A stretch of 64,000 nt of DNA from an uncultured Anaerolineaceae bacterium. Its GTDB lineage: Bacteria; Chloroflexota; Dehalococcoidia; Tepidiformales; Tepidiformaceae. The stretch covers positions 1-64,000 of the forward strand of contig CAZDUX010000011.1 in the NCBI GenBank assembly GCA_964508715.1. The letters are read 5' to 3'. Below, one piece after another: positions 21,005 to 61,368 of the stretch (the stretch's first letter is position 1; every line of letters begins with the position of its first letter). The notes under the pieces are model-generated. The model worked only from the letters and a program-made list of their open reading frames with translations, had not been told where the DNA came from and did no database searches. Made by a program: the position numbers and the translations under genes.

Positions 21005-21096
21005 GGCCATTTCATATAGTGTTGGGCATCAAGTCTAACGTCGTTCGACTCGACAACGGCGTACTCTCGAGGCAGAGCTCTGGAGGACCGGCAGCC

Positions 21097-21540
21097 ATGA
21101 CCGTGAGCTATTACAGCAAGCCCAACTGGGCGATGAAGCACGTATTGAACCCCGCAATCGAGCTGGTGACGAAGTCGGGATTGAGCCTCCGCGGCTCACG
21201 CGTGCTGGCGGTGCAGGGCCGCAAGAGCGGGAAGTGGTACACCACACCCGTGAACCTGCTGGAGTTCGAAGGCGGGCGTTACCTGGTGGCGCCGCGGGGC
21301 GAGACCGGCTGGGTGAAGAACATCCGCTCGAGCAAGACAGGCATCGTTCGGCTGGGACGGAAGAGCGAGCCCATCGCGGTCGAGGAGGTGGCCGACGACC
21401 AGAAGCTGCCGGTCCTGCGCGAGTACCTGAGGCGCTGGTCTGCAGAGACCGCGGGCATGTTCGGCCTGTCGAAGAAGCCATCGGACGAGCAGATCGCGGC
21501 GATTGTGAGCCGCCACCCGGTGTTCCGAATCGTAGGGTAG
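21097..21540 (+). CDS. deazaflavin(F420)-dependent nitroreductase family protein (Ddn/DUF385-like)
   Basis: PNWAMKHVLNPAIELVTKSG...VLAVQGRKSGKWYTTPVNLLEFEGGRYLVAPRGE.WVKN, hallmark of Ddn/PNPOx-like split-barrel family; divergent from TetR. Confidence 0.75.
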   Translation: MTVSYYSKPNWAMKHVLNPAIELVTKSGLSLRGSRVLAVQGRKSGKWYTTPVNLLEFEGGRYLVAPRGETGWVKNIRSSKTGIVRLGRKSEPIAVEEVADDQKLPVLREYLRRWSAETAGMFGLSKKPSDEQIAAIVSRHPVFRIVG

Positions 21541-27085: not shown

Positions 27086-27860
27086 AGCCAAAGGGTAGCG
27101 GCGCGGGCGAGGCTGGGCCCTCCATTACCGCATGGCGGCGATACGGAACGGTATACTGGCGGCATGGCCATCCGAACCCCACGACCGAAACGGCAGGAGC
27201 GGCAGGCGGCTTCGCGCTACCACGGTATGCGCATGACCGAGAAGGAATACCTGGCGCTGCCGGAGGAGAAGCCGTATCTCGAGTACGTCGACGGAGTCGT
27301 GCTGCAAAAACCCATGCCAAACATCGAACACACGCTGCTGACAGGCCATCTGATCATTGAACTTGGGCTTTACGCCCGGCGCACAGGAGGGCACGTGGGC
27401 CCCGAGGCGCGAACACGGTTCACAGATGGTGCGAACTACCGGCTTCCAGACGTCTCGTACTGGACTTCGCCGGGCAGGCCAGCGAACGATTCGGTGCCGA
27501 CCCTCGCAATCGAGGTGCGATCACCGGGCCAAACGATGGGGGAGCTCCGCGAGAAGTGCCGGTTTTTCCGGCGAAACGGAGTCGAGGTGGCGTGGCTCGC
27601 TGACCCGGAGTCCCGCACCGTCGAGGTCTTCGAGGAGGGACGAGACGCGGAAGCCCTCGCGGCCCCGGCCATCCTCACCTCTCCCGCACTTCCAGGGTTC
27701 GCGCTCGACCTCGCCGGTCTGTTTGGGGTGCTCGATTCCTGACGGTTCATCGTAGCCGTGACGGTCCGTGATCGGCAGGCGCGTCATGCGGCGGCCCGGT
27801 CAGTGGTCCACACGGTGAGCGCTCACTCCTGAGAGGCGGGCAGGGTTCCGGTGGGCCGGT
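27086..27860. repeat. tandem direct repeat, copy 1 (about 775 bp, carries Uma2 gene with its upstream region)
   Basis: Near-identical to 27861..28635; period 775 bp from ORF offsets (27164 vs 27939; 27742 vs 28517). Confidence 0.85.
27164..27742 (+). CDS. Uma2 family endonuclease (DUF820, restriction-endonuclease-like fold), copy 1
   Basis: 192 aa; PD-(D/E)xK-like region NYRLPDVSYWTSP...PTLAIEVRSP characteristic of Uma2/DUF820. Confidence 0.8.
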   Translation: MAIRTPRPKRQERQAASRYHGMRMTEKEYLALPEEKPYLEYVDGVVLQKPMPNIEHTLLTGHLIIELGLYARRTGGHVGPEARTRFTDGANYRLPDVSYWTSPGRPANDSVPTLAIEVRSPGQTMGELREKCRFFRRNGVEVAWLADPESRTVEVFEEGRDAEALAAPAILTSPALPGFALDLAGLFGVLDS

Positions 27861-28635
27861 AGCCAAAGGGTAGCGGTGTGGACGAGGCTGGGTGCTTCAT
27901 TATCGCATGGCGGCGATACGGAACGGTATACTGGCGGCATGGCCATCCGAACCCCACGACCGAAACGGCAGGAGCGGCAGGCGGCTTCGCGCTACCACGG
28001 TATGCGCATGACCGAGAAGGAATACCTGGCGCTGCCGGAGGAGAAGCCGTATCTCGAGTACGTCGACGGAGTCGTGCTGCAAAAACCCATGCCAAACATC
28101 GAACACACGCTGCTGACAGGCCATCTGATCATTGAACTTGGGCTTTACGCCCGGCGCACAGGAGGGCACGTGGGCCCCGAGGCGCGAACACGGTTCACAG
28201 ATGGTGCGAACTACCGGCTTCCAGACGTCTCGTACTGGACTTCGCCGGGCAGGCCAGCGAACGATTCGGTGCCGACCCTCGCAATCGAGGTGCGATCACC
28301 GGGCCAAACGATGGGGGAGCTCCGCGAGAAGTGCCGGTTTTTCCGGCGAAACGGAGTCGAGGTGGCGTGGCTCGCTGACCCGGAGTCTCGCACCGTCGAG
28401 GTCTTCGAGGAGGAACGAGACGCGGAAGCCCTCACGGCCCCGGCCGTCCTCACATCTCCCGCGCTTCCAGGGTTCGCGCTCGACCTCGCCGGCCTGTTTG
28501 GGGTGCTCGATTCCTGACGGTTCCTCGTCGCAGGAAGGTTCCGTGATCGGCAGGCACGTAACGGGGCGGCCCGGTCACCAGTACACGAGCGTGCATGGCC
28601 TGTGGCAAGCGCGATGCCGGCCATGATGCTGGCCG
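27861..28635. repeat. tandem direct repeat, copy 2
   Basis: About 98% identical to copy 1 through the coding part; 3' ends diverge. Confidence 0.85.
27939..28517 (+). CDS. Uma2 family endonuclease, copy 2 (4 aa substitutions relative to copy 1)
   Basis: Start refined to MAIRTPRP within 213-aa ORF; differs at EEGRD>EEERD, LAAPAI>LTAPAV. Confidence 0.8.
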   Translation: MAIRTPRPKRQERQAASRYHGMRMTEKEYLALPEEKPYLEYVDGVVLQKPMPNIEHTLLTGHLIIELGLYARRTGGHVGPEARTRFTDGANYRLPDVSYWTSPGRPANDSVPTLAIEVRSPGQTMGELREKCRFFRRNGVEVAWLADPESRTVEVFEEERDAEALTAPAVLTSPALPGFALDLAGLFGVLDS

Positions 28636-32744: not shown

Positions 32745-33290
32745 ATGACGAGATTTGGAACCAGGCATGTGCTCTTCGGCCTTCTTGCTGCCGCGCTCGG
32801 CGGGACCACCCTGGTGGCGGCCGCATGCGGTGGCGGCGACGACCTGGGTGATATCAAGGCGACAGCGACTGCGGCGGCGAAGAATGCACCATCGCCCACA
32901 GCAACCCCGGATCCGGTGCCTGCTTACCGGCAAGCAGCGGACCAGAAGGCGGGTGAACTGGCGACAGCCGTGAAGAAGATCCAGGACGACATGATTGCGG
33001 CATCGACGACCCAGGCCGACCCGAAATGGCCATCGGTGCTCACGGCCGATGCCGACGCAATCACCCAGAAGGCCAACGAGCTCATCGCACTCAAGGCGCC
33101 GAACGCCGACTACCAGCCAGTCGCCGACCAGATGACGACCGCGGCGACAAAGCTCTCCACCGGTGCAGACCTGATGAAGCAGGCAGTGACGAAGCTCTCG
33201 CAGGATTTCGGCATCCAGGGCGCGGCCGCGCTTGACGAGGGTATGAAGCAGCTCGCTACCGCCCGCGAGACACTGGCGAACAAGAAGTAG
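32745..33290 (+). CDS. hypothetical lipoprotein (helical, Ala/Lys-rich)
   Basis: Signal peptide plus lipobox LVAAACGGGDD; start refined to MTRFGTRHV. Confidence 0.5.
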   Translation: MTRFGTRHVLFGLLAAALGGTTLVAAACGGGDDLGDIKATATAAAKNAPSPTATPDPVPAYRQAADQKAGELATAVKKIQDDMIAASTTQADPKWPSVLTADADAITQKANELIALKAPNADYQPVADQMTTAATKLSTGADLMKQAVTKLSQDFGIQGAAALDEGMKQLATARETLANKK

Positions 33291-33456
33291 CGGAGCGAGC
33301 AGGCGCACGATGAAGTGGCTGTTCTATTCCGTGGTGGCTGCGGCGGCGTTACTCGCGGCCATCATCGCGACCGTGCGCATCCGGCGTGGGGGAACGGGTG
33401 CGCCCACCGGGAGCGTGTGAGCAACTGCCGCTTTCTCCAAGCCCCATCGGAGCGAT

Positions 33457-34404
33457 ATGAGCGTGGGCTTCTTGATACCCGGCCCCGCGAGGTGTAGAAG
33501 CGGGCGCATCATGAACGAGAAGCTGAACTCAGACCATCGCATCTTCGTCAGCTACATCGACAAGTCCCGCGAGTACTACCTCGCGCAGGGCTATGGGAAC
33601 CCTTACCGCTGGGCACACTTCGACGAGGTCCCCTTTGGCAGGTTGGCGAGGCCGCTGAGTGAATCGCGAATCGGCCTCGTGACAACGGCAAGCCTCCCCC
33701 AACCGGAACCCGCACCCGATTCATTCGCCATTGCTCCAGTGGTGTACGCGGCCCCGACGGACCCGGCCCCCACAAGCCTCTATACCGACCACCGGTTCTG
33801 GGATAAAGACGCCACGCACACACACGATATCGACTCGTTTGCGCCGATCAACCGGCTGCGCGAAGCCGAAGCGGCGGGCAAGATCGGCAGTCTGTCGCCG
33901 CGGTTCTATGGCATCCCCACCGTTTATAGCCAGCGCCAGACAATGGAATCGGACTGCCCCGCACTCCTCGGGCTTTGCCGCGAAGATGGGGTGGATGCGG
34001 CGATCCTCGTGGCTCTCTGACCAGTCTGTCACCAGACCGTGAGTCTGGCGGCAAGGCACCTCGAAGAAGCGGGTATTCCGACGGTGGTTGTTGGGTCGGC
34101 CCGCGACATCGTGGAGCAATGCGGAGTTGCCCGGTTCCTGTTCACCGACTTCCCGCTTGGCAATCCGTGCGGCGCCCCTTACGACCCGGCGATGCAGACA
34201 GCGATCGTGGGCATGGCGCTGGAATTGCTGGAGTCGGCACGCATGCCCCGCACCACGGTGCAGACACCGTTTCGCTGGCCAAACGATGACTGGCGGCAGG
34301 ACTTCATGCGCTTCGACCATCTCACGGCAGAGGAACTCCGGGAGATGGGTGAGGGCCGCCGCCGGCGCCAGGCCGAACAACACCCGGTACGCGCAAGCGG
34401 ATAG
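33457..34404 (+). CDS. GrdB/PrdB-family (glycine/betaine/sarcosine/D-proline reductase component B-like) selenoprotein; Sec encoded by in-frame TGA at 34018..34020
   Basis: ORFs 33457..34020 and 34039..34404 are in the same frame separated by TGA; joined translation gives ...DAAILVAL-U-PVCHQTVSLAARHLEEAGIPTVVV, matching the U-x-x-C-H...AGIPT active-site region of PrdB/GrdB; upstream region resembles GrdB (INRLREAEAAGKIGSL..FYGIPTVYS); start may be 33511 (MNEKL). Confidence 0.7.
34032..34048 (+). promoter_or_regulatory. candidate bacterial SECIS hairpin (CCAGAC-CGUGA-GUCUGG) starting 11 nt after the UGA
   Basis: 6-bp stem plus 5-nt loop located at +12..+28 from TGA, the spacing used by bacterial SelB-dependent SECIS elements. 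Confidence 0.4.
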
Positions 34405-34412
34405 CGGCGCCC

Positions 34413-35375
34413 TCACCAGCGGTGGCTGGCGAATGCCCACTCGATGATGTTGATGGCGTCCTGGGCGCGGGTAGAGGTGTTGAGAAGGACGGCATAGATA
34501 CGGTGACCGTCGCGCTTCGCCGAGACAACGAAAGTGCGGCCCGCCTGCTCGGTGTAGCCGGTCTTCACGCCATCGACACCGGGCGTGTAGTTCAGAAGGG
34601 GGTTGAGGTTGTAGAGGTCGATATCACGCGACCCCTTCGCAACGTGCTTTTCGGTGCCCACAATCTGCGCGAAGGTCGCGTTCTGCATTGCGTAGCGCGA
34701 GAGGAGGGCGAGGTCGGCGGCAGTGCTGTAGTGGTCCGGCCCCCCGAGGCCGGTGGGTTCTGTGAAATGCGTATCGCGGAGGCCGATGCGGGCAGCCAGG
34801 TCGTTCATGCGGGCAACGAAGTCGGACTGGCTCCATGACGTTGCCTGCATGAGTGCCTCCGCGGCGTCGTTCCCGGAGACGAGCATCATTCCATAGAGGA
34901 GTTCACGGACAGAGAAGCGGTCACCGGGCTCGAGGCCCATGACGGAGCTGTCCTGCTCCCACTCGCGCTGCAGGTTCGGGTTCACGTCGACGACGCGGTC
35001 GAGATCGCCCCCTTCGATGACGACCATGGCTGTTGCAATCTTGGTGAGGCTCGCGGGGGCCATGCGCTGGTGACCGGCACGGTCGAAGAGGATGGTGCCG
35101 GACGCTTCATCCATGACGATGATCGACTGGGCGCTGAGTTGCGGGACCGGGATATCGAGTGCGGCCGGCGGCTTCGGGTCCGGTTGGAGGCTGCGCTGAG
35201 CGGCTGCGACCGGGGCGCCGGGCGGGTGTCCACCATCGAACGGCGAAGTTGTCGTTGGGGTTGCCGTTGGTTCGAACCACCGGGCGAAGGCGGAGTTGTT
35301 GCCGCTGCTCTTGCCGTTGCAGGACGAGAGCAGAATTGCGAAGGCGATAACGCCGATGAGCGTCCGGCTGCTCAT
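34413..35375 (-). CDS. D-alanyl-D-alanine carboxypeptidase (peptidase S11, PBP5/6-like)
   Basis: SxxK (ASLTKIAT), SGN (LVSGNDAAEAL) motifs; signal/lipobox-like N-terminus MSSRTLIGVIAFAILLSSC; start refined. Confidence 0.8.
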   Translation of the reverse strand: MSSRTLIGVIAFAILLSSCNGKSSGNNSAFARWFEPTATPTTTSPFDGGHPPGAPVAAAQRSLQPDPKPPAALDIPVPQLSAQSIIVMDEASGTILFDRAGHQRMAPASLTKIATAMVVIEGGDLDRVVDVNPNLQREWEQDSSVMGLEPGDRFSVRELLYGMMLVSGNDAAEALMQATSWSQSDFVARMNDLAARIGLRDTHFTEPTGLGGPDHYSTAADLALLSRYAMQNATFAQIVGTEKHVAKGSRDIDLYNLNPLLNYTPGVDGVKTGYTEQAGRTFVVSAKRDGHRIYAVLLNTSTRAQDAINIIEWAFASHRW

Positions 35376-35454: not shown

Positions 35455-35961
35455 TCAGGCTGGCAAACGGCCGATACGGCGGAGGGCAATCTCGGACGCG
35501 GTATTGGGCGCGGGCTCGGCGAGAAGCTCGAGGCGAGCGAGCCACTTCACACTGGTGAAACACTCCCCACCGGGGACGAGGAGCCGCACGGGTGCACCAT
35601 GCGCCTGCGGGATCGGCTCACCGTTGAGGGTGAGCGCGAGAAGTGACTGACGGGCTACGTCGACGGGGAGCGGCAGGCTGAAATCGCCGGCGGAGGCCTG
35701 TACCCAGCGGGCGTCGCCAGCAATGCCGGCACGATCGAGCACCTGGCCCATGCGGACGCCACGCCAGCGCAGGCCCGGAACAGTCCAGCCCTCCAGGCAG
35801 GCGAACTCATCGAAGATCTCGTCCTGCGGCATGGCAGCGAGATCCTCGGCGCCGAGCGAGAGCGGCCGCGAAACGAGGCCGTCGATGACGAGCCGGTAGC
35901 CGGCCGCGGGCTCGGGATAGGGATGGATGGGGAGCGATTCGAGGCGCTTGACTTCGGGCAT
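35455..35961 (-). CDS. molybdopterin-dependent oxidoreductase domain protein (sulfite oxidase/MsrP-like)
   Basis: 168 aa; EFACLEGWTVPGLRWRGV and GAPVRLLVPG..CFTSVKWL match the Mo-cofactor binding fold of the sulfite oxidase family. Confidence 0.65.
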   Translation of the reverse strand: MPEVKRLESLPIHPYPEPAAGYRLVIDGLVSRPLSLGAEDLAAMPQDEIFDEFACLEGWTVPGLRWRGVRMGQVLDRAGIAGDARWVQASAGDFSLPLPVDVARQSLLALTLNGEPIPQAHGAPVRLLVPGGECFTSVKWLARLELLAEPAPNTASEIALRRIGRLPA

Positions 35962-35995: not shown

Positions 35996-36373
35996 CTACC
36001 GTTCGCCAGCGGAGATATCGAGGTCCACCGCCACGGGGAGCGCTGTCTGCCCCCAGTTCGTAAGGTCACCGCTGTAGCCGGGCTGGTACTTCGCCACGAG
36101 GAGCCGGCGGGCGAGAGCATCTTCCTCGGTGGCGGGGGCGACAAGACGGGCAGTTCCGTGGAACACCTGCCCGGCAATGCGAACGGTCACGGCGGGGATC
36201 TCCCGGATATTCCTCACCCAGTGGGAGTTGTCGCGCCCGCCGCTGAGCAGGTAGAGGGTTATGCCGGCGAGACCGAACCAGATCTCGATCTCACGCGGCT
36301 GGCCGCTCTTGCGGCCCGTAGTCGTGAGGTAGCAGTAGTCGCTCGTGGCGGCGAGGCTGGAGAGGTCCATCAC
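35996..36373 (-). CDS. deazaflavin-dependent nitroreductase family protein (Ddn-like)
   Basis: YLTTTGRKSGQPREIEIWF..LYLLSGGRDNSHWVRNI matches the Ddn/DUF385 family. Confidence 0.7.
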   Translation of the reverse strand: MMDLSSLAATSDYCYLTTTGRKSGQPREIEIWFGLAGITLYLLSGGRDNSHWVRNIREIPAVTVRIAGQVFHGTARLVAPATEEDALARRLLVAKYQPGYSGDLTNWGQTALPVAVDLDISAGER

Positions 36374-39186: not shown

Positions 39187-42100
39187 CTACTCGGTACGAA
39201 GGGCTTGAGCTCCCGCCTGGGCGGAGACGGCGCGTGTTGCAGCAACGAGCCCGATGACCACGACCGCAAGCACCGCCGCAATCGCACCACCCACGATGAG
39301 CCACTCCGTCTGGAGGATGAAGCCGGGCTCAACCTTCGCACCCGTTTCGGTGACGTCGAGGAAGGAGAGCATCTGGCGGCCAACGATCACGCCGAGGATT
39401 GCACCAGCGAGTGTGCCCGCGATGGAGACGACGGCGTATTCGAGCGCAAGCATGCGGAAGACCTGGGTGCGTGAGACACCCATCGCGCGCACGACGGCAA
39501 ACTCGACGCGCCGGCGGTTGATGGAGGTGACGAGCGAGACGAGCAACCCCGCGGCGACGAGGGCAAGCACAGCCGCGAAGCTCACGAAGAGGATGCCGCT
39601 GCCCGCCGCGGCGATGAGCGGGTTTTTCAGGTTATCGTTGAGGTCCTCGCTACGGCTCACGAGATGTGGAAGGCCGTATGCCGTGTCATCGAACGCCTCG
39701 ATGATCTGCTTCGAGACGGCCGCCTCGTCGGCGCCGGGCGCGAGTGAAATGAACGCCTCGGTGGGCACGAGGTCGTTTGGATCGGAAAAGCCGGTTGTAT
39801 CGCCCCACGTGGTGAGCTGGTCGCGATTGAAGATGACCGCGGGCCCATCCTTCGTCGCGAGCGTGGGAAAGAGGTCGAACGACGCGACGACACGGATGGG
39901 GACGAGCGTTCCACGGCCAACGACAAGCGTCGTGGTGCCGCCGGGCCGGAGGCCGGTAGAAGCAAGGAACGTCCGGCTGGCGAGGACAGACAGCGGGACG
40001 ATCTGGGGAGTGGTGTACATGCCGCGTGTCTCGCCCGTGTTCCCGGCGCCGAAGGTGAACGTGGCAGCGGCCTTGCCGCCGTGCGGCGCATCGGTTGCAG
40101 CGGCGAGGGTGTCCGGCTTTTGCGCCCGCGAGGGGAACGGTGACCAGCGCATGCCCGTCTCGAAGTCCTCCACCACCACGGCCGATCCATCGGCGAGGGT
40201 TGCGCCGATATCGTCGACGAAGAGCGGCGGATAGTTCGCCAGCGGCCGGTTGGGCGGCAACGTGAAGATGATGGACACGAGGCTCACCGGCTCGGGCCGC
40301 GGTCCGCCAAGGTCGGAGGCAATAGGTGCCGTGCGCCGGGACCAGGCGCCGCCGGTATCAGCGGTGCCGAGTTGAACCGTAAACAGGCGGCCGCTACCGT
40401 CGCGCAGGTGAGCCCAGATACCAATCTCGGAGAGCGCCGAATCGCCCTTGAACCAGACGCTTAGCTGGTTGGTGCCCTGGGGAAGGATGGCGCCCGGGAT
40501 CGCGACGGGAGCAGAGAGGCGGGCGAGGAGGTCGCCGAGTGGCTCGAAGGCGAAGTCGCTACGCCAGTAGATGATGTTCGAGAGCGCCGCAGGGTCGGCG
40601 GCGAGGACCTGGAACGAGCGGCTGACGACCCCTGGAACCGCAACCCCCGCCGTCGTGCGGGTGATGGCCGTCGCGCCGCTCACACCGGGGATGGCTTTCA
40701 GCTTCTTCTCGGTCTCCGGTGGTTCGGGGAGGGTGCGCCCGCCGGGAGCGAGGAGGCGGAGGTCGGCGCCGGTATCGAAGCCGGAGCGGTCACGGTAGGA
40801 GGCATCGGTTGTCTTTGCGTAGCTCGCGGCGAAGCTGCCGACGGCGACGGCCATCATCACGAGGAGGGTGAGACGCGTGTACTGGGCGGAGTTCCGTACG
40901 ACCTGCACCAGGCCGAGGGAGACGCTCGCGCCGGCGGCGGCATCAACACCCTTCGCAATCATCCGGAGGAAGATGGGGTAGAAGCGGAGGACGAGGGCGG
41001 CGGCGGCAGCCATTACCAGCGCGGGCGAGGCGAGGAGTAGCGGGTCGCTGCTGAGGCCGGCGGTAGAGGACGGTTCGTAGACAGAGCCGCGTTGGCGAAG
41101 TTCGAAGAGGGCAACGCCGGCTGCTGCAGCAAGAGCAAGGTCGAGGTAGTAGCGATGGATGACCGACCGGCCGGGGCGCGATTCGGAGCGGCGGGTGCTC
41201 ACCACCCCTCTCCGCGCGACGACGACGGCGGGGATGACGAGCGCCGCGAGTGAGAGGCCAACACCGGCAGCCGCCGCGGCAAACGACATCGGTGGGATGA
41301 TGACGGGGATGAGGCTGCCACCGCTCACATCGCGAAAAACCGGCGTCAGGCCGAGGATGGCAGTAGAACCGGCGGCGAGGAAGGGTGCGAGGATGGCGGC
41401 CGGTAGACCGATGATGAGCCCCTGCCAGAGGTAGATGATGGCGACCTGCATGACGCTCGCGCCACGGCCCCGGAGGAGGGCGATATCGGCAGCCTGCTGC
41501 TCGACGACGATCGCCGACACGATACCGACGTAGAAGAGGGCGATACCGGTGATCTCGAGGAGGAGCACGGTCAGCGGGACCTCGGCGTAGTCTGCATTCG
41601 TGCCGTAGCGCTGGAGCGTATCGCGCAGGGGGCTGAACGCGGTGCCGTTCATCGGTTCGACATCCTTGCCGAGGGCTTCGATGTCACTCCGGGCGATGGT
41701 GAAGTTGTTGCGATTGAGCTTCTCGGGGTTGGCATCGACCCACCAGGAGACGGATGCGTGATAGCCCGGGAACGCGGCGCCGAAGTTGCCGGTCAGGGTG
41801 CGCTCATCGGTGAACGCAGGAAGGATGGGGCCGACGTCGGGGATGTCGAGGCGAAACGGCGAAAAGTAGAGTTCTGCCGGACGCCCCCAGAAGGGGTCCG
41901 CCGGGTCGGCCGGTTCGATGATGCCAACGATGACCGCAGGGATACTGAAGCTCGCATTTGCTGTGGGGTCGCAGGGGGGCGGCGGGGGCGGCGGTTCGCT
42001 GGTGGGAAGGATACGGACACAGGTGTCGAAGGACTCACGGAGTTCGAGGGGCTCGCCGACCTTGAACCGAGAGGCAGCGGCAGACTGCGTGCTGATCGCG

Positions 42101-42567
42101 AGCTGAATTGGATCGCCTTTGGCAGACGGCTGCGGAAGCTGCCCCTGGACAATACGGACGTGTGCGCTGTAGCCCGTGAGTGACTGCGGTCGTGCCTGGA
42201 AGAGGCCCGTCGTCGCCGTGTCGCCCGGGCGGGCAAGGCCGAAGCGGCCGAGCTGGATGTAGCGTGACTGGGCGGCGCGGAACCAGCCGATGCGTTCGTT
42301 GATACGCTGCTCAACCGCCTGGCGAACTGCCTGCCCGGCCTCGGTCTGGAGGGGCACATCGTTGAGGATGACCTGGGTCCCGGCCCCCTGGTGGAGTTCA
42401 CGCCGCACTTTGAAGGTGAGGCCAAGGTCGGCCATTGCGCGCGAATAGATGGGTGCACTGGCGAGGAGGGTGGCCGCCACGAAGACGCCCAGGGCGACGA
42501 CCGCGAGGAGCCCGCGGATCGCAAGGCTCCGGCGAAAGGCCAGGCGCATGGTGCTGAAAGCGCTCAT
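39187..42567 (-). CDS. giant ABC transporter permease, FtsX family (two FtsX modules, about 10 TM, two large extracytoplasmic domains)
   Basis: 1126 aa; FtsX-type C-terminal TM bundles in each half; paralogous to 42666..46043; weak or no SD at start. Confidence 0.8.
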   Translation of the reverse strand: MSAFSTMRLAFRRSLAIRGLLAVVALGVFVAATLLASAPIYSRAMADLGLTFKVRRELHQGAGTQVILNDVPLQTEAGQAVRQAVEQRINERIGWFRAAQSRYIQLGRFGLARPGDTATTGLFQARPQSLTGYSAHVRIVQGQLPQPSAKGDPIQLAISTQSAAASRFKVGEPLELRESFDTCVRILPTSEPPPPPPPCDPTANASFSIPAVIVGIIEPADPADPFWGRPAELYFSPFRLDIPDVGPILPAFTDERTLTGNFGAAFPGYHASVSWWVDANPEKLNRNNFTIARSDIEALGKDVEPMNGTAFSPLRDTLQRYGTNADYAEVPLTVLLLEITGIALFYVGIVSAIVVEQQAADIALLRGRGASVMQVAIIYLWQGLIIGLPAAILAPFLAAGSTAILGLTPVFRDVSGGSLIPVIIPPMSFAAAAAGVGLSLAALVIPAVVVARRGVVSTRRSESRPGRSVIHRYYLDLALAAAAGVALFELRQRGSVYEPSSTAGLSSDPLLLASPALVMAAAAALVLRFYPIFLRMIAKGVDAAAGASVSLGLVQVVRNSAQYTRLTLLVMMAVAVGSFAASYAKTTDASYRDRSGFDTGADLRLLAPGGRTLPEPPETEKKLKAIPGVSGATAITRTTAGVAVPGVVSRSFQVLAADPAALSNIIYWRSDFAFEPLGDLLARLSAPVAIPGAILPQGTNQLSVWFKGDSALSEIGIWAHLRDGSGRLFTVQLGTADTGGAWSRRTAPIASDLGGPRPEPVSLVSIIFTLPPNRPLANYPPLFVDDIGATLADGSAVVVEDFETGMRWSPFPSRAQKPDTLAAATDAPHGGKAAATFTFGAGNTGETRGMYTTPQIVPLSVLASRTFLASTGLRPGGTTTLVVGRGTLVPIRVVASFDLFPTLATKDGPAVIFNRDQLTTWGDTTGFSDPNDLVPTEAFISLAPGADEAAVSKQIIEAFDDTAYGLPHLVSRSEDLNDNLKNPLIAAAGSGILFVSFAAVLALVAAGLLVSLVTSINRRRVEFAVVRAMGVSRTQVFRMLALEYAVVSIAGTLAGAILGVIVGRQMLSFLDVTETGAKVEPGFILQTEWLIVGGAIAAVLAVVVIGLVAATRAVSAQAGAQALRTE

Positions 42568-42665: not shown

Positions 42666-45600
42666 ATGGGCAGTTTCGGCGCCGTGATTCGGATGGTGGC
42701 GCGACGGAGCCTCGGGCACTGGAAGTTGCTCGTAGCCCTCGTCTCGGGGGTGGTCTTGTCGGCGGCGCTGATGTCGAGCGTCTTCCTCTATTCCGACGCA
42801 ATCCGGGATCTCGGGCTGCGCCACGCACTCGATAGCCGCACCCCGCAGGCACTCGATGTCCACGTGACTGTCTCGGGCGGCAAGGTCCAGCAAGAGGATT
42901 ACGAGGCGCGCCGGAAGACCGTCGACGCCCTCATGACGGGCTACGCCAGCGACATCATGACGGGGATCACCCACTCGGGGACGTCGAGCGGATTCTACCT
43001 CACCGCTCCTGGCGAGCCTGTTCCGAACACCGACGACCGGCCACGGTCGCTGTTCGCGTTCCAGGAAGGGCTGATGGACCACGCGAAACTGGTCGAAGGC
43101 GTGATGCCCCCCGAGCCTTCGCCGGGAGTCCCCGGTCAACCGCTTGAAGTCCAGGTGCTGATGGGGAAGGACGCTGCCAAGTCTCTCGGGGTGAAGGTGG
43201 GGCAGGCGTTCGACGTACACTGGCCGATCCGCGAAACGGCACCCATTCGAGTTGTCGTCGCCGGCCTGGTGCAGCCGAACGACATGGGTGAACCGTTCTG
43301 GGCGGGGCACGGCGACCGTTTCCGGCCGAATACGCCCAGTTGGCCGACGTACGCCTTCTTCATGGACGAAGCAGCGCTGGTGAAGAGCGCCGGCGGGTTC
43401 CTCCCGGATATGGACATCTCCGTCGAGACCCTCGGGGCCGTCGACGCGAAGCGGATCGTCAGCGGCAACTCCGATGCAGTGGAGGGGCGCCTCAACGCTC
43501 TCGACTTAGCGCTGAAGCAGCAGGTGCCATTTTCGCGCGTCGAGACGGAGATCCCGGCCGTGATAAAGAACTACCGGGAGAAGCTCTTCTTCACACGGCT
43601 GCCGCTCTTCGCCCTGATGATCCAGGTCGTCGGTATCGTGCTCTTCTACGTGGCGATGGTGGGGAGCATGGTCGTCGACCGGCAGACCGGCGAGATTGCG
43701 CTCTTGAAGAGCCGCGGGGCGAGTAACCGGCAGGTGCTGGGTGTGTTCGCCATCGAGGGGCTTGGCATCGGCATCCTCGCAACCGTTACCGGGCCCATTA
43801 TCGCCATCGCGGCGATCTCGGTGCTCGGGCTCACGCCACCGTTTCACGACCTCAGTGGTGGCGCGCTGCTCCACGTGCCGCTCTCGGGAGGGGCGATCGC
43901 GCTCGCGGGCCTCGGGGCGTTCCTCGCGTTTCTCGCGCTGATCTGGCCGGCGTACCGGGCTTGCCGCTACAGCATCACGCAGTACAAGCAGGAGATCTCG
44001 CGCCCGCCGGTTCAACCGGCGTTCTTCCGCTACCACCTCGACGTCGTCGTCGCGGCGGCTGGCGCGTTCGCCTTCTACCAGCTTCGCCAGAACGACTCAT
44101 TCGCGACGAAGGACCTGTTCGGGGACCTCTCGTTCGACCCCATCCGGCTGGCCACGCCGTCGCTTCTCATCCTGCTCGTGGCGATGGTCTTCTTGCGGCT
44201 GTTTCCACTCGTTCTCGGGGTCGTCTCGTGGGCATCGAAGCCGCTTCCGGGCCCAACCGTTTCGTTCGGGCTCCTGCGAATGGTCCGCAGCCCCGTGCAG
44301 CACAGCCGGCTTATCCTGTTACTGATCCTGACGACGGCCGTGGGGGTTTTTGCAGCGGGATTCCGGGCGACGCTGGAGCAGGGCTACCGGGACCGCGCGG
44401 ACTACCGGGCCGGCGCTGCCGTGCGCATCCAGGATATCCGGCTGCCAGGTCCGACACCGGTCGGACCGTTCAACGACCTCATCGCGAAGGTCACCGGGTC
44501 GCGCGATTTCACGGCCGCAGCGCGCCAGAACGCGTTCGCAAGCCTCGACCGCTTCCAGTCGGAGAGCCTGAACGTTCTTGGCGTAGAGCCGGATGCGTTC
44601 GCCCGGATCGCGGACTGGCGGGGCGACTTCGCCGGGGATTCGCTCGCCGGCCTGCTTTCGCGGTTACCGCGCAAGCCGCAGGAACTCGCCCAGACACCGG
44701 CGATTCCCGGCAACGCGAAGTTCATCGGCGTCTGGGCGAACCTGCCGATCGGGCCGAACGCAGCGAGCCTCGGCATCCGGCTGCGCAACGCGGACGGAAT
44801 TACGTGGGACTACCGGTTGACGCCGGCGGGCACGGCAGTGGCGAACGCGTGGACCTTCTACTACGCCGATCTTTCGAAACCCGTGACGAGCCGCCCGGCC
44901 GAACTCGCGCTGAGTGAACGGCGTATCGACACGATATTCGTCCGCCTCACCTCGCAGCAGCCGCTCATCCCGGAGACCGACACGGCGCTCTTTGACGATC
45001 TCCAGACGACGACGGAAGCGGCAGCCAGCCCTGCGTGGAACGGGAAAGGATTCGTATCGCCGACGGTGGCCGATTCGTTCGACGATATGACCGCGTATGA
45101 ACTGGTGACCGGCGTTTCAACCCTGGGGAACCCGGGCCAGATCACGAGGGGGACAGCGACGAACGGCCGGACAGGAACCGTCGCGAGGCTGACCTTCACA
45201 CGGGGGCCCGGGAGCACGAATGTCGTGGGCTTCCGGCGCCAGACCGACCAGCGCCCTGTACCCGTGGTGGTGGACCAGCAGTTCCTCGACGTCGCAAAGA
45301 AAAAGGTTGGCGACGAGCAACTCGTGTTCGTGAACAACCAGTACGTGAATATGACGATCGTTGGCGCCTACGACCTCTTCCCGACGTATGACCCGCAGGG
45401 CAAGCAGCACCTCTTCATTGCCGACCTGGCGGCACTCCAGGCGAGCGCGAGCCGCACGCCAACCGGCGATACGATCTTCCCGAACGAGGCGTGGCTCAAC
45501 GACAATCCGGGGGGGCTGACGAAGCAGAGCCTGCTCGACAAGGGTGTGAATGCGCAGGAGGTGGCCGACCGCGACGCGATCTTCGCAGCCCAATCGGCCG

Positions 45601-46043
45601 ACCCGCTGGTCGCGGCAAGCTGGCAGGGCATCCTGTTCCTGTGCTTCGCGGCCGTGTTGTTGCTCAGCGGGCTCGGGTTCATCACGCATTCGGGGTTGAG
45701 TGCGCAGGCACGGTCGATGGAGTTCGCCATTCTCCGGACGATGGGGATGTCGGGGCGGCAGATTGTCGGGGTGGTGTCGTTCGAGCAGGTATTCGTGATT
45801 GTCGCCGGGCTTGCGGCGGGGACGATCCTGGGGTTCCCGCTCAGCCGGTTGATGATCGACTCGATGGGCATCACGGAGAGCGGGGTGGCTCCGGTGCCGC
45901 CACTCGTCTCACGGATCGGCTGGGACGCAGTGGTCACGGTCTATTCGCTGCTTGGCATGCTCGTTGGTGCGACGATTGTGGCGCTTTTCCTGCTCTATTC
46001 GCGGATAGGCGTAAGCAAGACACTGAGGATGGGCGAGCTGTGA
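42666..46043 (+). CDS. giant ABC transporter permease, FtsX family (paralog of 39187..42567)
   Basis: 1125 aa; strong SD GGAGGGGG; similar N-terminus (M..RRSL...LL..L...V.....L.S...YS.A..DLGL); followed by two ATPase genes. Confidence 0.82.
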   Translation: MGSFGAVIRMVARRSLGHWKLLVALVSGVVLSAALMSSVFLYSDAIRDLGLRHALDSRTPQALDVHVTVSGGKVQQEDYEARRKTVDALMTGYASDIMTGITHSGTSSGFYLTAPGEPVPNTDDRPRSLFAFQEGLMDHAKLVEGVMPPEPSPGVPGQPLEVQVLMGKDAAKSLGVKVGQAFDVHWPIRETAPIRVVVAGLVQPNDMGEPFWAGHGDRFRPNTPSWPTYAFFMDEAALVKSAGGFLPDMDISVETLGAVDAKRIVSGNSDAVEGRLNALDLALKQQVPFSRVETEIPAVIKNYREKLFFTRLPLFALMIQVVGIVLFYVAMVGSMVVDRQTGEIALLKSRGASNRQVLGVFAIEGLGIGILATVTGPIIAIAAISVLGLTPPFHDLSGGALLHVPLSGGAIALAGLGAFLAFLALIWPAYRACRYSITQYKQEISRPPVQPAFFRYHLDVVVAAAGAFAFYQLRQNDSFATKDLFGDLSFDPIRLATPSLLILLVAMVFLRLFPLVLGVVSWASKPLPGPTVSFGLLRMVRSPVQHSRLILLLILTTAVGVFAAGFRATLEQGYRDRADYRAGAAVRIQDIRLPGPTPVGPFNDLIAKVTGSRDFTAAARQNAFASLDRFQSESLNVLGVEPDAFARIADWRGDFAGDSLAGLLSRLPRKPQELAQTPAIPGNAKFIGVWANLPIGPNAASLGIRLRNADGITWDYRLTPAGTAVANAWTFYYADLSKPVTSRPAELALSERRIDTIFVRLTSQQPLIPETDTALFDDLQTTTEAAASPAWNGKGFVSPTVADSFDDMTAYELVTGVSTLGNPGQITRGTATNGRTGTVARLTFTRGPGSTNVVGFRRQTDQRPVPVVVDQQFLDVAKKKVGDEQLVFVNNQYVNMTIVGAYDLFPTYDPQGKQHLFIADLAALQASASRTPTGDTIFPNEAWLNDNPGGLTKQSLLDKGVNAQEVADRDAIFAAQSADPLVAASWQGILFLCFAAVLLLSGLGFITHSGLSAQARSMEFAILRTMGMSGRQIVGVVSFEQVFVIVAGLAAGTILGFPLSRLMIDSMGITESGVAPVPPLVSRIGWDAVVTVYSLLGMLVGATIVALFLLYSRIGVSKTLRMGEL

Positions 46044-46047
46044 TAGG

Positions 46048-47001
46048 ATGCGGCACCATCACTTGCCGATCCCCGCTTGGAGCGCCTGTGCGCGCTGGAG
46101 CAGCGCTGTGACCCCGGAATCCGAAGTACCGCACATCCAGTGCGAGGACCTCTTCAAGATCTACAAGATCGCCAACCTCGAAGTCGTTGCCCTGCGCGGG
46201 CTCGACCTGAAGGTGCCGCATGGCGAAATCATGGGGATCGTCGGCTCATCGGGATCGGGGAAGAGCACCCTGCTCAACATCCTGGCGGGCCTCGACAAGC
46301 CATCGGCCGGGCGGGCGTTCGTGAACGGGAATGACCTCGTGACGCTCTCCGAGGCAGAGATGGTGGACTACCGGCGCAAGCAGGTCGGCTTTGTGTGGCA
46401 GCAGACGGGCCGGAATCTCATTCCGTATCTCGACGCACTCCAGAACGTGGAGGTGCCGCTCATCCTCGGCGGGGCATCGAAGAAGATGGCCCGTGAACGG
46501 GCGCGCGAGCTGCTCGATGCCGTGGGGCTGAGCGACCGGCTCAACCACCTGCCGAACGAACTCTCGGGTGGGCAGCAGCAGCGGGTCTCGATTGCCGTAG
46601 CGCTCGCGAACAACCCGCCCCTCCTGCTCGCGGACGAGCCCACCGGCGAACTCGACTCGATCGGGGCGACGATGATCTTCGCGCTCTTCGACGATCTCAA
46701 TCGCCGCTACGGGATAACCATCGTCATCGTGACCCACGACCCGGACATCGCCGAGCGCGTGGACCGCGTGGTCGCGATTCGCGACGGGCGCACGAGCACA
46801 GAGACCATTCGCACGCTCGGCCCGGATCCCAACCGGCTGGAGATGACGCACGATGAGTACGTGCTCATCGACTCGGCGGGGCGCCTCCAGATCCCCCGGG
46901 CCTACCTGGACGGGTTGAAGATCACCGAACGGGCCAGGGTGCTTCTTGGCGAGGGGCGGGTTGAGGTGCTGCCCGACCGTGATGAAAGGAGCCGGCGCTG
47001 A
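46048..47001 (+). CDS. ABC transporter ATP-binding protein (MacB/LolD-like) with C-terminal extension
   Basis: Walker A GSSGSGKSTL, signature LSGGQQQRVSIAVAL, Walker B LLLADEPTGELD; possible alternative GTG start at 46108. Confidence 0.88.
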   Translation: MRHHHLPIPAWSACARWSSAVTPESEVPHIQCEDLFKIYKIANLEVVALRGLDLKVPHGEIMGIVGSSGSGKSTLLNILAGLDKPSAGRAFVNGNDLVTLSEAEMVDYRRKQVGFVWQQTGRNLIPYLDALQNVEVPLILGGASKKMARERARELLDAVGLSDRLNHLPNELSGGQQQRVSIAVALANNPPLLLADEPTGELDSIGATMIFALFDDLNRRYGITIVIVTHDPDIAERVDRVVAIRDGRTSTETIRTLGPDPNRLEMTHDEYVLIDSAGRLQIPRAYLDGLKITERARVLLGEGRVEVLPDRDERSRR

Positions 47002-47024
47002 GCGGGGCATCGGTCAGAGCCGAG

Positions 47025-47825
47025 ATGGTGTCGCGGCGTTTCGAACGCGGTGCTGACGAGGTCTGGGCCCTCCGTGACGTTTCGATCTCGGTGAACGCGG
47101 GAGAGGTGATGGCACTCGTGGGGCGCTCGGGGTCGGGGAAGACGACGCTGCTCAATATCCTCGCCGGGCTCGACAAGCCAACGGCCGGGGAGGTGTTCAT
47201 CGATGGCGAACGCATCGACACGATGTCGGAACGCCAGATGACCGAGTTGCGGCGTCGAAAGCTGGGCTTTGTGTTCCAGTCGTTCGGCCTGTTGCCGCTG
47301 CTTTCGGCCCAGGAGAATGTGGAGCTACCAGCGCGGATCGCGGGGTTTGGGCACGGGGAACGTGTCCAGCGAGCGAAGCGTGCGCTCGAGCTCGTCGGGC
47401 TGACGAAGCGGGCACAGCACCGGCCGTACGAGCTTTCGGGTGGTGAGCAGCAACGCGTCGCGATCGCACGTGCGCTCACGTGTGAGCCAGCGCTCATCCT
47501 CGCCGATGAGCCAACCGGGGAACTCGATTCACTGACGGCAAAGGCGGTTTTTGCACTCCTGCGCGACCTGGCTCGCAGCGAGGGGATCACGGTTATCACC
47601 TGCACCCATGACCGCCAGGTGATGGAGATGGCCGACCGCGTGGAGGAGCTCGCCGATGGCCGCATCGTCAAGGGCCACGAGCGCGAAGTCTGGGAGTATG
47701 TGCAGGCGAAGGAGCACCATGTTCCCGAACCGGCCGGGGCGTCGCATCACTGGCCAAAGGGAGAATCAACCCCCGAAGACGAGTCTCCTCCGGCCGAACG
47801 GGCCCAACGGCCATGGGACTGGTGA
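47025..47825 (+). CDS. ABC transporter ATP-binding protein (MacB/LolD-like), second ATPase
   Basis: Walker A GRSGSGKTTL, signature LSGGEQQRVAIARAL, Walker B LILADEPTGELD; C-terminal acidic tail. Confidence 0.88.
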   Translation: MVSRRFERGADEVWALRDVSISVNAGEVMALVGRSGSGKTTLLNILAGLDKPTAGEVFIDGERIDTMSERQMTELRRRKLGFVFQSFGLLPLLSAQENVELPARIAGFGHGERVQRAKRALELVGLTKRAQHRPYELSGGEQQRVAIARALTCEPALILADEPTGELDSLTAKAVFALLRDLARSEGITVITCTHDRQVMEMADRVEELADGRIVKGHEREVWEYVQAKEHHVPEPAGASHHWPKGESTPEDESPPAERAQRPWDW

Positions 47826-59189: not shown

Positions 59190-59306
59190 CCGCGCTTATC
59201 AAGAGTGGGCAGAGGGATCCGGCCCTGCGAAGCCCCGGCAACCTGCCACCATCGGGCAAGGTGCCAACTCCGGTCTCCCGTCGCGGCGGGAGGAAGATGA
59301 GAGCGA
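59190..59306 (+). promoter_or_regulatory. SAM-I (S-box) riboswitch
   Basis: CUUAUCAAGAGUGGGCAGAGGGAUCCGGCCCUGCGAAGCCCCGGCAACC...GGUGCCAACUCC...GGAAGAUGAGAGCG aligns nearly base-for-base with the B. subtilis yitJ S-box core; P1 halves CUUAUC/GAUGAG. Confidence 0.88.
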
Positions 59307-59494
59307 CTCCGCTCCCCACCATTACGGCCCACGCGGAAACGAGGAGTACCAGGATGCCGTCCTCATTGGGCCGTATGGTCATGCGCTAGCCCCTCGCCGA
59401 AGGGGCTTCCCGCTATCCACCCCCGATCCGCACCGATTTTGCGCGTGCCCTGCCGCACCCGCCATCCCGTGCCCATCGAACGCGGAGCATGACC

Positions 59495-60748
59495 ATGTCC
59501 TATGCAACTGCCCTTCGCTGTCGCGAATGTCATCGCGAATACCCACTCGCCGCACAGCATGTCTGCGAGTTCTGTTTCGGCCCCGTCGAAGTCACCTACG
59601 ACTACGACGCTATCCGCCAGGGAGTCACGCGCGAGCGTATCCAGGCCGGCCCGGCCAGCCTCTGGCGGTACCGCGATTTTCTCCCGGTCGACCCCGACGC
59701 CGCCATCGACATCGGCGCCGGCTTCACCCCGCTCGTTCGTGCGCGAAACCTCGGCAAGGCGCTCGGCCTGAACAACCTCTACATCAAGAACGACACGGTG
59801 AACCCAACCTGGTCGTTCAAGGACCGTGTGGTTGCGGTGGCCGCGAGCCGCGCCCGCGAGCTTGGATTCGAGAAACTGGCCTGCGCGAGCACGGGCAACC
59901 TGGCCAACAGCGTCAGCGCCCACGCCGCCGCCGCCGGGATGGAGGCCGTTGTCTTCATCCCCCACGACCTCGAGGCCGGCAAGGTCGTCGGTTCGGCCAT
60001 CTACAATCCGACACTCGTCAAGGTTCGCGGCAACTACGACGCGGTGAACCGGCTCTGCGCGGAGCTCTCTTCCACCTATCCCTGGGCGTTCGTGAACGTG
60101 AACGTGCGGCCCTACTACAGCGAAGGCTCGAAGACGCTCGGGTTCGAGGTCGCCGAGCAGCTTGGCTGGCGGGCGCCGGACCACTGTGTCGTCCCAATCG
60201 CCAGCGGTTCGCTCTTCGTGAAGATCAAGAAGGGGTTCGAAGAGCTGGCGAAGGCGGGCCTCATCGAGCCAACGAAGACGCGCATGAGCGGCGCGCAGGC
60301 CACCGGCTGTTCGCCGGTTGCTACCGCGTGGGAGGAGGGTTCGATGAACTTCCGGCCCCAGCGCCCCGACACCATCGCCAAGTCGCTCGCCATTGGCAAC
60401 CCGGCCGACGGCTACTACTCGCTCGTCCAGCTGCGCGATACGGGCGGCGCCTGCGGCAACGTGAGCGACCCCGAGATCGTGGCCGGGATGAAGCTCCTTG
60501 CCGAGACCGAGGGCATCTTCGCCGAAACTGCCGGCGGCGTGACCGTTGCCTCGCTCAAACAGCTTGCCGAACAGGGTAGAATTGGGCCCGACGAGGTGAC
60601 GGTGGCGTTCATCACCGGGGCCGGCTTCAAGACCATCGAGGCCGTCACCGGGGCGCTCGAGCCCCCGCTCGAGATCGACGCCACCGTCAGCAGCTTCGAG
60701 CACGCCTTCGAGGCGCGCGGCGCGGCTGCACTCGTGGGTGCGAACTAA
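59495..60748 (+). CDS. threonine synthase homologue (PLP fold-type II) with N-terminal C4 zinc ribbon; candidate MetM-like homocysteine synthase
   Basis: CRECH...CEFC zinc ribbon; NPTWSFKDR PLP-Lys motif, CASTGN, IGNPA, TGAGFK as in ThrC; start chosen at second ATG, 7 nt after GGAG. Confidence 0.85.
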   Translation: MSYATALRCRECHREYPLAAQHVCEFCFGPVEVTYDYDAIRQGVTRERIQAGPASLWRYRDFLPVDPDAAIDIGAGFTPLVRARNLGKALGLNNLYIKNDTVNPTWSFKDRVVAVAASRARELGFEKLACASTGNLANSVSAHAAAAGMEAVVFIPHDLEAGKVVGSAIYNPTLVKVRGNYDAVNRLCAELSSTYPWAFVNVNVRPYYSEGSKTLGFEVAEQLGWRAPDHCVVPIASGSLFVKIKKGFEELAKAGLIEPTKTRMSGAQATGCSPVATAWEEGSMNFRPQRPDTIAKSLAIGNPADGYYSLVQLRDTGGACGNVSDPEIVAGMKLLAETEGIFAETAGGVTVASLKQLAEQGRIGPDEVTVAFITGAGFKTIEAVTGALEPPLEIDATVSSFEHAFEARGAAALVGAN

Positions 60749-61068: not shown

Positions 61069-61368
61069 TTGCAACTCCGGAGGACTTCCGTGCCCGTTAC
61101 TGTCCGTATCCCGCAGCCCCTTCGCAACCTGACCGGCAACCAGCCGACCGTGCCCGCCGGTGGCGACACCCTCGCCGCCTGCATCACCGACCTCGAAGCG
61201 AAGTACCCCGGCTTCCGTGAGCGGATGATGGATGACGGCGGCCAGCTTCGCCGCTTTGTCAACGTTTATGTCAATGGCGACGATGTGCGCTTCATCGATG
61301 GCCTCGCCACGGCGCTCAAGGATGGCGACGAGGTCAGCATCGTGCCGGCGGTTGCGGGCGGAGCGTAG
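61069..61368 (+). CDS. MoaD/ThiS-family sulfur carrier-like protein (C-terminus ...AVAGGA)
   Basis: About 93-99 aa beta-grasp pattern (VNGDDV..DG..T.LKDGDEVSIVPAVAGG); probable GTG start at 61090 after GGAGGA RBS. Confidence 0.65.
   Translation: MQLRRTSVPVTVRIPQPLRNLTGNQPTVPAGGDTLAACITDLEAKYPGFRERMMDDGGQLRRFVNVYVNGDDVRFIDGLATALKDGDEVSIVPAVAGGA

Follow-up and report, generated by a model that had tools for sequence, protein, structure and literature searches.

An in-frame UGA followed by a Sec-specific hairpin in a Dehalococcoidia gene that very probably encodes a stand-alone PrdB-like selenoprotein

Among the closest described systems to the gene analyzed here are D-proline reductase and glycine reductase. 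The gene lies at positions 33511..34404 (+) of a stretch of 64,000 nucleotides of metagenomic DNA (contig CAZDUX010000011.1, hereafter the window), and its reading frame is interrupted by a TGA. Both reductases have a selenocysteine (Sec, U)-containing subunit with a characteristic motif, UxxC in PrdB and UxxCxxC in GrdB, and both are encoded in operons, described as prdB-prdC and grdA-grdB (PMC13188914). In these subunits, the target of Sec is the alpha-carbon of a substrate bound to a pyruvoyl subunit, and the adduct is then resolved by a Cys (PMC13188914). PrdB-named selenoproteins have also been reported from the ocean. Zhang, Fomenko and Gladyshev (2005; PMC1088965) described 42 "proline reductase PrdB" UxxC selenoproteins from the Sargasso Sea, where this was the third most abundant family, and Zhang and Gladyshev (2008; PMC2398784) identified 235 PrdB selenoprotein sequences and 110 Cys homologs in the Global Ocean Sampling (GOS) data, where the family likewise ranked with the most abundant selenoproteins. 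Both studies accept the PrdB name at face value and leave the missing PrdA unaddressed; later reviews, PMC13188914 among them, list the family simply as D-proline reductase. Our literature search found no paper discussing a stand-alone form or its function.

The protein encoded in the window belongs to this environmental family. It is 58% identical over 175 residues (E = 5e-76) to the Sargasso Sea sequence AACY01093821 in the supplement of PMC1088965, where the string PVCHQ occurs 14 times and the family signature reads ...LVPL-U-PVCHQTV...GIPTV...FTDFPLGNP.... The U-P-V-C-H-Q-T, GIPTV and FTDFPLGNP blocks are common to the Sargasso/GOS members and the window protein, and we found no essential difference between them, although the window copy comes from a Dehalococcoidia population of a terrestrial or other metagenome and the Sargasso/GOS members from marine Proteobacteria. 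The gene thus adds one more ordinary copy to a selenoprotein family that is known and very widespread; the Sec/Cys variation and the UxxC site of this family have been in the literature for two decades. The Sargasso "PrdB" set also holds a second subfamily with the motif U-G-L-C-N-Q-T (e.g., AACY01424071, PMC1088965 supplement), so that at least two distinct groups go by the name of environmental "PrdB".

In the window, the gene appears as two open reading frames (ORFs), 33457..34020 and 34039..34404, which share a frame and are parted by the TGA (34018-34020) and six sense codons, CCA GTC TGT CAC CAG ACC (P V C H Q T), that precede a GTG at 34039. This arrangement, first pointed out in a sequence-only reading of the same DNA, is evident in the raw sequence and the ORF list. 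Translation through the TGA gives ...EDGVDAAILVAL before it and PVCHQTVSLAARHLEEAGIPTVVVGSARDIV... after it, ending at a TAG (34402-34404), and reproduces the Sec-spanning product that had been proposed, ...GVDAAILVAL-U-PVCHQTVSLAARHLEEAGIPTVVVGSARDIV; the spanning peptide is ...ILVAL-U-PVCHQTVSLAAR. We consider it very probable that both ORFs belong to one gene for a 297-residue cytoplasmic selenoprotein of a stand-alone PrdB-like family, homologous to PrdB and to the C-terminal half of GrdB. Profile matches, homologs and a structure model all bear on this coding sequence (CDS), which comprises 297 codons and the TAG, with Sec at codon 170. As judged from the N-termini of aligned homologs, translation probably begins at the ATG at 33511 (MNEKLNSD...) and not at the ATG at 33457, where the first ORF opens. 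The in-frame extension up to the first ATG (33457..33510, +; MSVGFLIPGPARCRSGRI) is probably untranslated, as homologs lack a matching N-terminus. The only one with such an extension, P0012, is a gene-caller's truncated 187-residue ORF from the same population and the sole truncated match among the aligned homologs. Gene callers split this gene in every assembly examined. An antisense ORF of 239 residues (33721-34440, -) covers most of the selenoprotein gene, and a naive GC-frame gene caller chose it over the split sense ORFs, an artefact typical of high-GC DNA that could lead annotation astray.

Profile searches were run on the joined protein with Cys substituted at the TGA. More than 5000 homologs were detected in a search of 5.8 billion proteins, the best full-length ones being approximately 290 residues long and 50-70% identical. 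Cys was located exactly at the TGA position (L-C-P-V-C-H-Q-T) in all 22 full-length homologs aligned, and the corresponding column was at least 90% Cys among 117 homologs. After the UGA Sec codon (34018..34020, +), with which the U-P-V-C-H motif begins, P171, V172, C173, H174 and Q175 are invariant in 118 sequences; these include the codons of the presumed resolving Cys173 (TGT) and of His174 (CAC) at 34027..34032 (+). Within the family, conservation is highest in the P-V-C-H-Q-T codons that separate the TGA from the GTG.

Sec-containing forms were sought in species-dereplicated genomes with an exact degenerate pattern, TGA followed by P-V-C-H-Q-[TS]-x-S-L-x-x-R-x-L-E, for which the estimated number of chance matches is well under one. 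The same in-frame TGA, with the frame open and conserved on either side, was present in at least 120 species-level genomes. These loci were distributed over Alpha-, Beta-, Gamma- and Deltaproteobacteria, Myxococcota, Acidimicrobiia, Rokubacteria, Methylomirabilota, Binatia, Chloroflexota (Dehalococcoidia and an "Anaerolinea sp." metagenome-assembled genome, MAG), Spirochaetales (Spirochaetes) and Limisphaerales (Verrucomicrobia). Cultured carriers among the loci listed were Enhydrobacter aerosaccus ATCC 27094 (NZ_FUWJ01) and Rhodospirillaceae bacterium CCH5-H10. Closed genomes with a Sec form include OZ241346.1 and the MAG chromosomes OZ244981.1 and NZ_OZ257251.1. Whether orthologs end at this TGA, and whether they have Cys or Sec there, were questions raised by the sequence-only reading. 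None of the 120 other genomes terminates at this codon: their frames stay open past U over a median of 128 codons, and orthologs carry either Cys or TGA at the position, as described above. Identity to the window protein among 114 Sec forms had a median of 58% after U and 43% before it.

These data bear on the simplest alternative, that the TGA is a true stop and the locus is either a pseudogene or a pair of small genes, an N-terminal one of 169-187 residues and a C-terminal one of 121. Gene callers do annotate the split, a GTG start is available six codons after the TGA, and Sec machinery was not seen in the 64-kb window. However, the same codon splits the gene in at least 120 species with no sign of decay and with higher conservation after the TGA than before it, and the PVCHQT codons, which lie between the two ORFs, are the best conserved in the family. 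In addition, the joined protein is predicted by AlphaFold2 (AF2) to form a single domain that encloses the TGA position, and the nucleotides of the downstream hairpin are conserved and covary in TGA forms only. We therefore regard a true stop as very unlikely.

The hairpin, CCAGAC-CGUGA-GUCUGG (34032-34048), has a 6-bp stem and a 5-nucleotide loop and starts 11 nucleotides after the UGA, just as the sequence-only reading had described; beyond being present, it is Sec-specific and covarying. The candidate bacterial selenocysteine insertion sequence (bSECIS) spans 34021..34057 (+), with the apical stem at 34032-34037/34043-34048, the loop at 34038-34042 and a lower stem predicted by RNAfold at about 34024-34030/34050-34057. 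A distance of 11 nucleotides between UGA and hairpin is that of the minimal SECIS of E. coli fdhF, and G/U in the apical loop, which CGUGA has, is typical for SelB binding.

We aligned the 60 nucleotides from the TGA in 119 distinct Sec forms and used as a control 114 distinct Cys forms, collected from metagenomes with the same pattern carrying TGY. The codons for T-V-S-L were ACC-GTG-AGT-CTG in approximately 92% of Sec forms, and the window has this set. Three stem pairs (16:30, 17:29 and 20:26) were invariant in Sec forms and two covaried. At pair 15:31, 77 sequences had C-G and 29 had U-A; where the His codon changed synonymously, the codon located five positions downstream changed in its first base to match. 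Pair 18:28 was G-C in 102, A-U in 10 and G-U in 7 and was never unpaired; here, a Gln change from CAG to CAA was matched by a Leu change from CUG to UUG. The Cys forms differed. The 6-bp stem was fully paired in 103/119 Sec forms and 3/114 Cys forms, and the Val codon was GTG in 108/119 and 17/114, respectively. The Ser codon was AGT in 110/119 Sec forms and AGC in 87/114 Cys forms, and the U-A combination at 15:31, found in 29 Sec forms, occurred in a single Cys form. This contrast in stem and codons indicates that the hairpin is a selected RNA element tied to the UGA, as expected of a bacterial SECIS, and could serve as the basis of a family-specific SECIS model. RNAalifold recovered the stem core, keeping 4 stem pairs, and this low number is explained by a minority SECIS variant in the alignment. 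In about 6 Sec forms (L015, L017, L024, L043, L096 and L124), the sequence is Q-S-V-S-L (CAG TCG GTC AGT TTG) and a different hairpin, with a 3-nucleotide loop, lies about 5 nucleotides further downstream, a second SECIS solution in the family.

A second alternative is that TGC or TGT was turned into TGA by a mistake in sequencing or assembly, or that TGA is reassigned to a standard amino acid. Only one base separates TGA from either Cys codon, and Cys forms of the protein are common. On the other hand, the identical TGA recurred in the window's own population, on 10 contigs that stem from different metagenome assemblies or sequencing runs, and the window contains the Sec-specific ACC-GTG-AGT-CTG set, which is absent from Cys forms. 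TGA also serves as the ordinary stop of the adjoining genes (33418-33420, +; 34413-34415, -), at positions consistent with their Pfam domains, and code reassignment is therefore no explanation. Error or reassignment thus retains next to no probability, and a Sec codon remains the preferred interpretation. The population belongs to Dehalococcoidia (Chloroflexota); a near-identical fragment in the same cluster, MCZ2111644.1, is named by NCBI [quoted passage not shown]. A strain variant differs after U by 5 synonymous and 3 non-synonymous changes, without a frameshift in the domain and without substitutions in the SECIS stretch. Strain variants also show an indel at the extreme C-terminus (window 34380-34404 versus L001 9330-9389), which leaves the domain unaffected and gives the second ORF another tail and another length (121 versus 135 residues). 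Further in-frame TGA candidates in the window were sought with a crude scan, which at 65% GC gave too much noise and no convincing case.

Compared with the described reductase subunits, the joined protein is similar to PrdB and GrdB profiles, in agreement with the family assignment in the sequence-only reading, but scores below every curated cut-off. The best match was the PrdB model TIGR04483 (E = 2.7e-27), with residues 42-255 aligned to profile positions 20-233 of 238, at 95.7 bits against an equivalog cut-off of 300. Models of GrdB, GrdF and GrdH matched with E values of about 1e-9 to 1e-10 over their C-terminal halves (profile positions ~205-422 of 431); scores were 39.1 against a cut-off of 65.45 for TIGR01918 and 36.5 against 602 for TIGR01917. 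The Pfam model GRDB (PF07355) gave a borderline 21.3 bits, just under its cut-off of 22. Likeness to the C-terminal half of GrdB had earlier been claimed for the part upstream of the TGA; the likeness is real and extends over the whole protein, not the upstream part alone.

The closest comparison is with PrdB of Clostridium sticklandii and C. difficile (TIGR04483), with which the window protein shares homology over nearly the full profile, a UxxC motif with Sec at the same place and a similar size (33 kDa versus 26 kDa for PrdB). It differs from PrdB in having about 40 additional N-terminal residues and a C-terminal helix. GrdB, GrdF and GrdH (PF07355, TIGR01917/TIGR01918) share their C-terminal half, including the Sec site, with the window protein by homology. 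GrdB, however, is a two-part protein of approximately 430 residues, whereas the window protein has 297 and is devoid of the N-terminal half. The motif proposed earlier for the window gene combined features of both enzymes: the PrdB-type UxxC followed by His is present, but the GrdB-type UxxCxxC is not, as U-P-V-C-H-Q-T has no third Cys. Judged by its sequence and its surroundings, the window protein is not a canonical PrdB or GrdB, because it misses the cut-offs, has neither GrdB's N-terminal half nor its UxxCxxC motif and is accompanied by no conserved neighbor.

The latter point comes from clustering all ORFs within approximately 5 kb of the gene at 240 loci (120 Sec forms and 120 Cys forms). 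No conserved neighbor of any kind was found at these loci, PrdA, GrdE and GrdA types included: no prdA, prdC or other prd gene was nearby in any of them, and grdA, grdE, grdC and grdD were absent from the conserved neighborhoods as well as from the window. The largest non-self cluster comprised 26 loci of closely related genomes, and adjacent partners on the same strand recurred in at most 8 loci. Within about 10 kb of the gene in the window's population, and in the whole 64-kb window, no prdA or grd gene was detected. The absence of partners had been noticed in the sequence-only reading from the window alone, and it now extends to the 240 loci.

These comparisons bear on a third alternative, namely that the gene encodes selenoprotein B of a true D-proline or glycine/betaine/sarcosine reductase, with PrdA/GrdE and electron-transfer partners located elsewhere in the genome. 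In its favor, PrdB is the best-matching profile and is covered almost from end to end, the UxxC motif is that of PrdB, and NCBI and JGI name the homologs "D-proline reductase PrdB" or "glycine reductase". However, the TIGR04483 score is far under its cut-off, those of TIGR01918 and Pfam GRDB are missed as well, and the lack of PrdA/GrdE/GrdA-type or other conserved neighbors contrasts with the known grdA-grdB and prdB-prdC operons. In addition, the family is abundant in surface-ocean metagenomes and is found in Bradyrhizobium, which carries a Cys form, and in Reyranella and Pseudohongiella, all taxa named after known aerobes; Stickland fermentation is unexpected in such taxa and in the surface ocean, and this distribution also sets the family apart from PrdB. 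Taken together, a reductase component appears improbable.

Instead, we tentatively propose that the stand-alone PrdB-like family is an autonomous Sec/Cys-dependent enzyme with a new chemistry, which would have no pyruvoyl partner, would not be a component of proline or glycine reductase and would be widely used by aerobic and oligotrophic bacteria; this possibility falls somewhat short of being probable. As no pyruvoyl partner (PrdA/GrdE) or other conserved partner accompanies it, the family probably does not perform the Stickland reaction with D-proline or with glycine. The AF2 model of the joined protein is a single confident domain (mean predicted local distance difference test, pLDDT, 89.8; predicted template modeling score, pTM, 0.90), in which U170 lies between a strand (163-167) and a helix (172-186). 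In this model, U170 and C173 would occupy the loop and the first helix turn after a beta-strand of a Rossmann-like alpha/beta domain. Nucleophilic selenols and thiols that work with a resolving Cys are usually placed in this way, where a helix begins, as U170-x-x-C173-H174 is in the model. The most likely catalytic scheme follows the described reductases: Sec170 would act as the attacking nucleophile, Cys173 would resolve the adduct into a Cys173-Sec170 selenenylsulfide, and a cellular thiol system would re-reduce it. By analogy with the established bacterial Sec pathway, SelB-GTP-Sec-tRNA(Sec) would bind the bSECIS on the translating mRNA and insert Sec at codon 170.

Several observations weigh against the preferred interpretation of the gene as that of a PrdB-like selenoprotein. 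The catalytic scheme is an analogy to PrdB and GrdB, and a PDB sequence search with the family profile yielded no PrdB or GrdB structure, only chance matches with E > 0.3. Fold searches gave generic Rossmann-like matches only, and Foldseek against PDB returned nothing with E < 0.01. A partner may be encoded elsewhere in the genome. With regard to Sec insertion, a tRNA scan of the 64-kb window detected no tRNA at all, and thus no tRNA-Sec, and tblastn with E. coli SelA, SelB and SelD found no match in the window or in approximately 250 loci. Pfam annotation of about 50 window ORFs likewise revealed no SelA, SelB or SelD homolog. These negatives cover 64 kb of a larger genome and say little about the rest; the BSepDB paper reports that Dehalococcoidia includes MAGs with 46-49 predicted selenoproteins. 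The fold of the single sequence is no better than that of shuffled ones (z = -0.78 for a 71-nucleotide stretch), and the significance of the hairpin comes from the comparison with other sequences, not from the lone fold. Rfam at gathering threshold identified only a S-adenosylmethionine (SAM) riboswitch in the window and has no model for the hairpin, and a permissive Rfam search of 33800-34300 gave nothing.

Around the selenoprotein gene, a 181-residue putative lipoprotein is encoded upstream (32745..33290, +), followed by a hydrophobic 36-residue peptide ORF with a TGA stop (33310..33420, +). The two had been named as neighbors before, and both assignments are made by reading, the former from its lipobox-like N-terminus (...TLVAAAC); neither has a Pfam match, and the lipoprotein is also called in L001 and L249. 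Downstream and convergent is the D-alanyl-D-alanine carboxypeptidase gene (34413..35375, -), whose earlier assignment agrees with a Peptidase_S11 match (E = 7.9e-59). The lipoprotein was not kept beside the family at the 240 loci, and an operon with the upstream lipoprotein, the peptide or an amino-acid transporter was rejected in view of the neighborhood clustering. A promoter and terminator scan found none. Genes farther away, including a molybdopterin oxidoreductase-domain gene, an F420H2 quinone-reductase-like gene, an ATP-binding cassette (ABC)/FtsX pair and rplK-rplA, were not informative.

Some of these regions have features of their own. The small molybdopterin-binding oxidoreductase-domain gene (35455-35961, -) adjoins one of two F420H2-dependent quinone-reductase-like genes (35996-36373, -, and 21019-21540, +), a hint that F420 may serve in the redox metabolism of this Dehalococcoidia population. 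Two divergent permease genes of approximately 1125 residues (39187-42567, -, and 42666-46043, +) match FtsX at the C-terminus only and are followed by two ABC ATPase genes (46048-47825, +). Tandem Uma2-family genes, putatively restriction endonuclease-like, are located just upstream of rplK-rplA (27164-27742, +, and 27876-28517, +). The SAM riboswitch (59193-59303, +; RF00162, 79.9 bits) lies upstream of a gene for a 419-residue pyridoxal phosphate-dependent (PALP) enzyme, in a region that also includes 59489-60748 (+) and 61069-61368 (+). On a related contig, the PALP gene is followed by a NIL-domain gene and a ThiS-family sulfur-carrier gene, and the set looks like a SAM-regulated methionine/sulfur-carrier cluster.

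For annotation, the consequence is that one Sec-containing CDS should replace the two ORF fragments. The question of the role of the family predates this window, which adds no functional clue of its own. It arises because the database label of proline/glycine reductase stands against the lack of a pyruvoyl partner, the lack of a conserved operon and hosts that are not expected to ferment amino acids, features that call into question the real substrate of the family. The cultured carriers, Enhydrobacter aerosaccus ATCC 27094 and Rhodospirillaceae bacterium CCH5-H10, offer an experimental entry point. If the family is indeed an autonomous enzyme, the "PrdB / glycine reductase" label in thousands of database entries would be a systematic misannotation.

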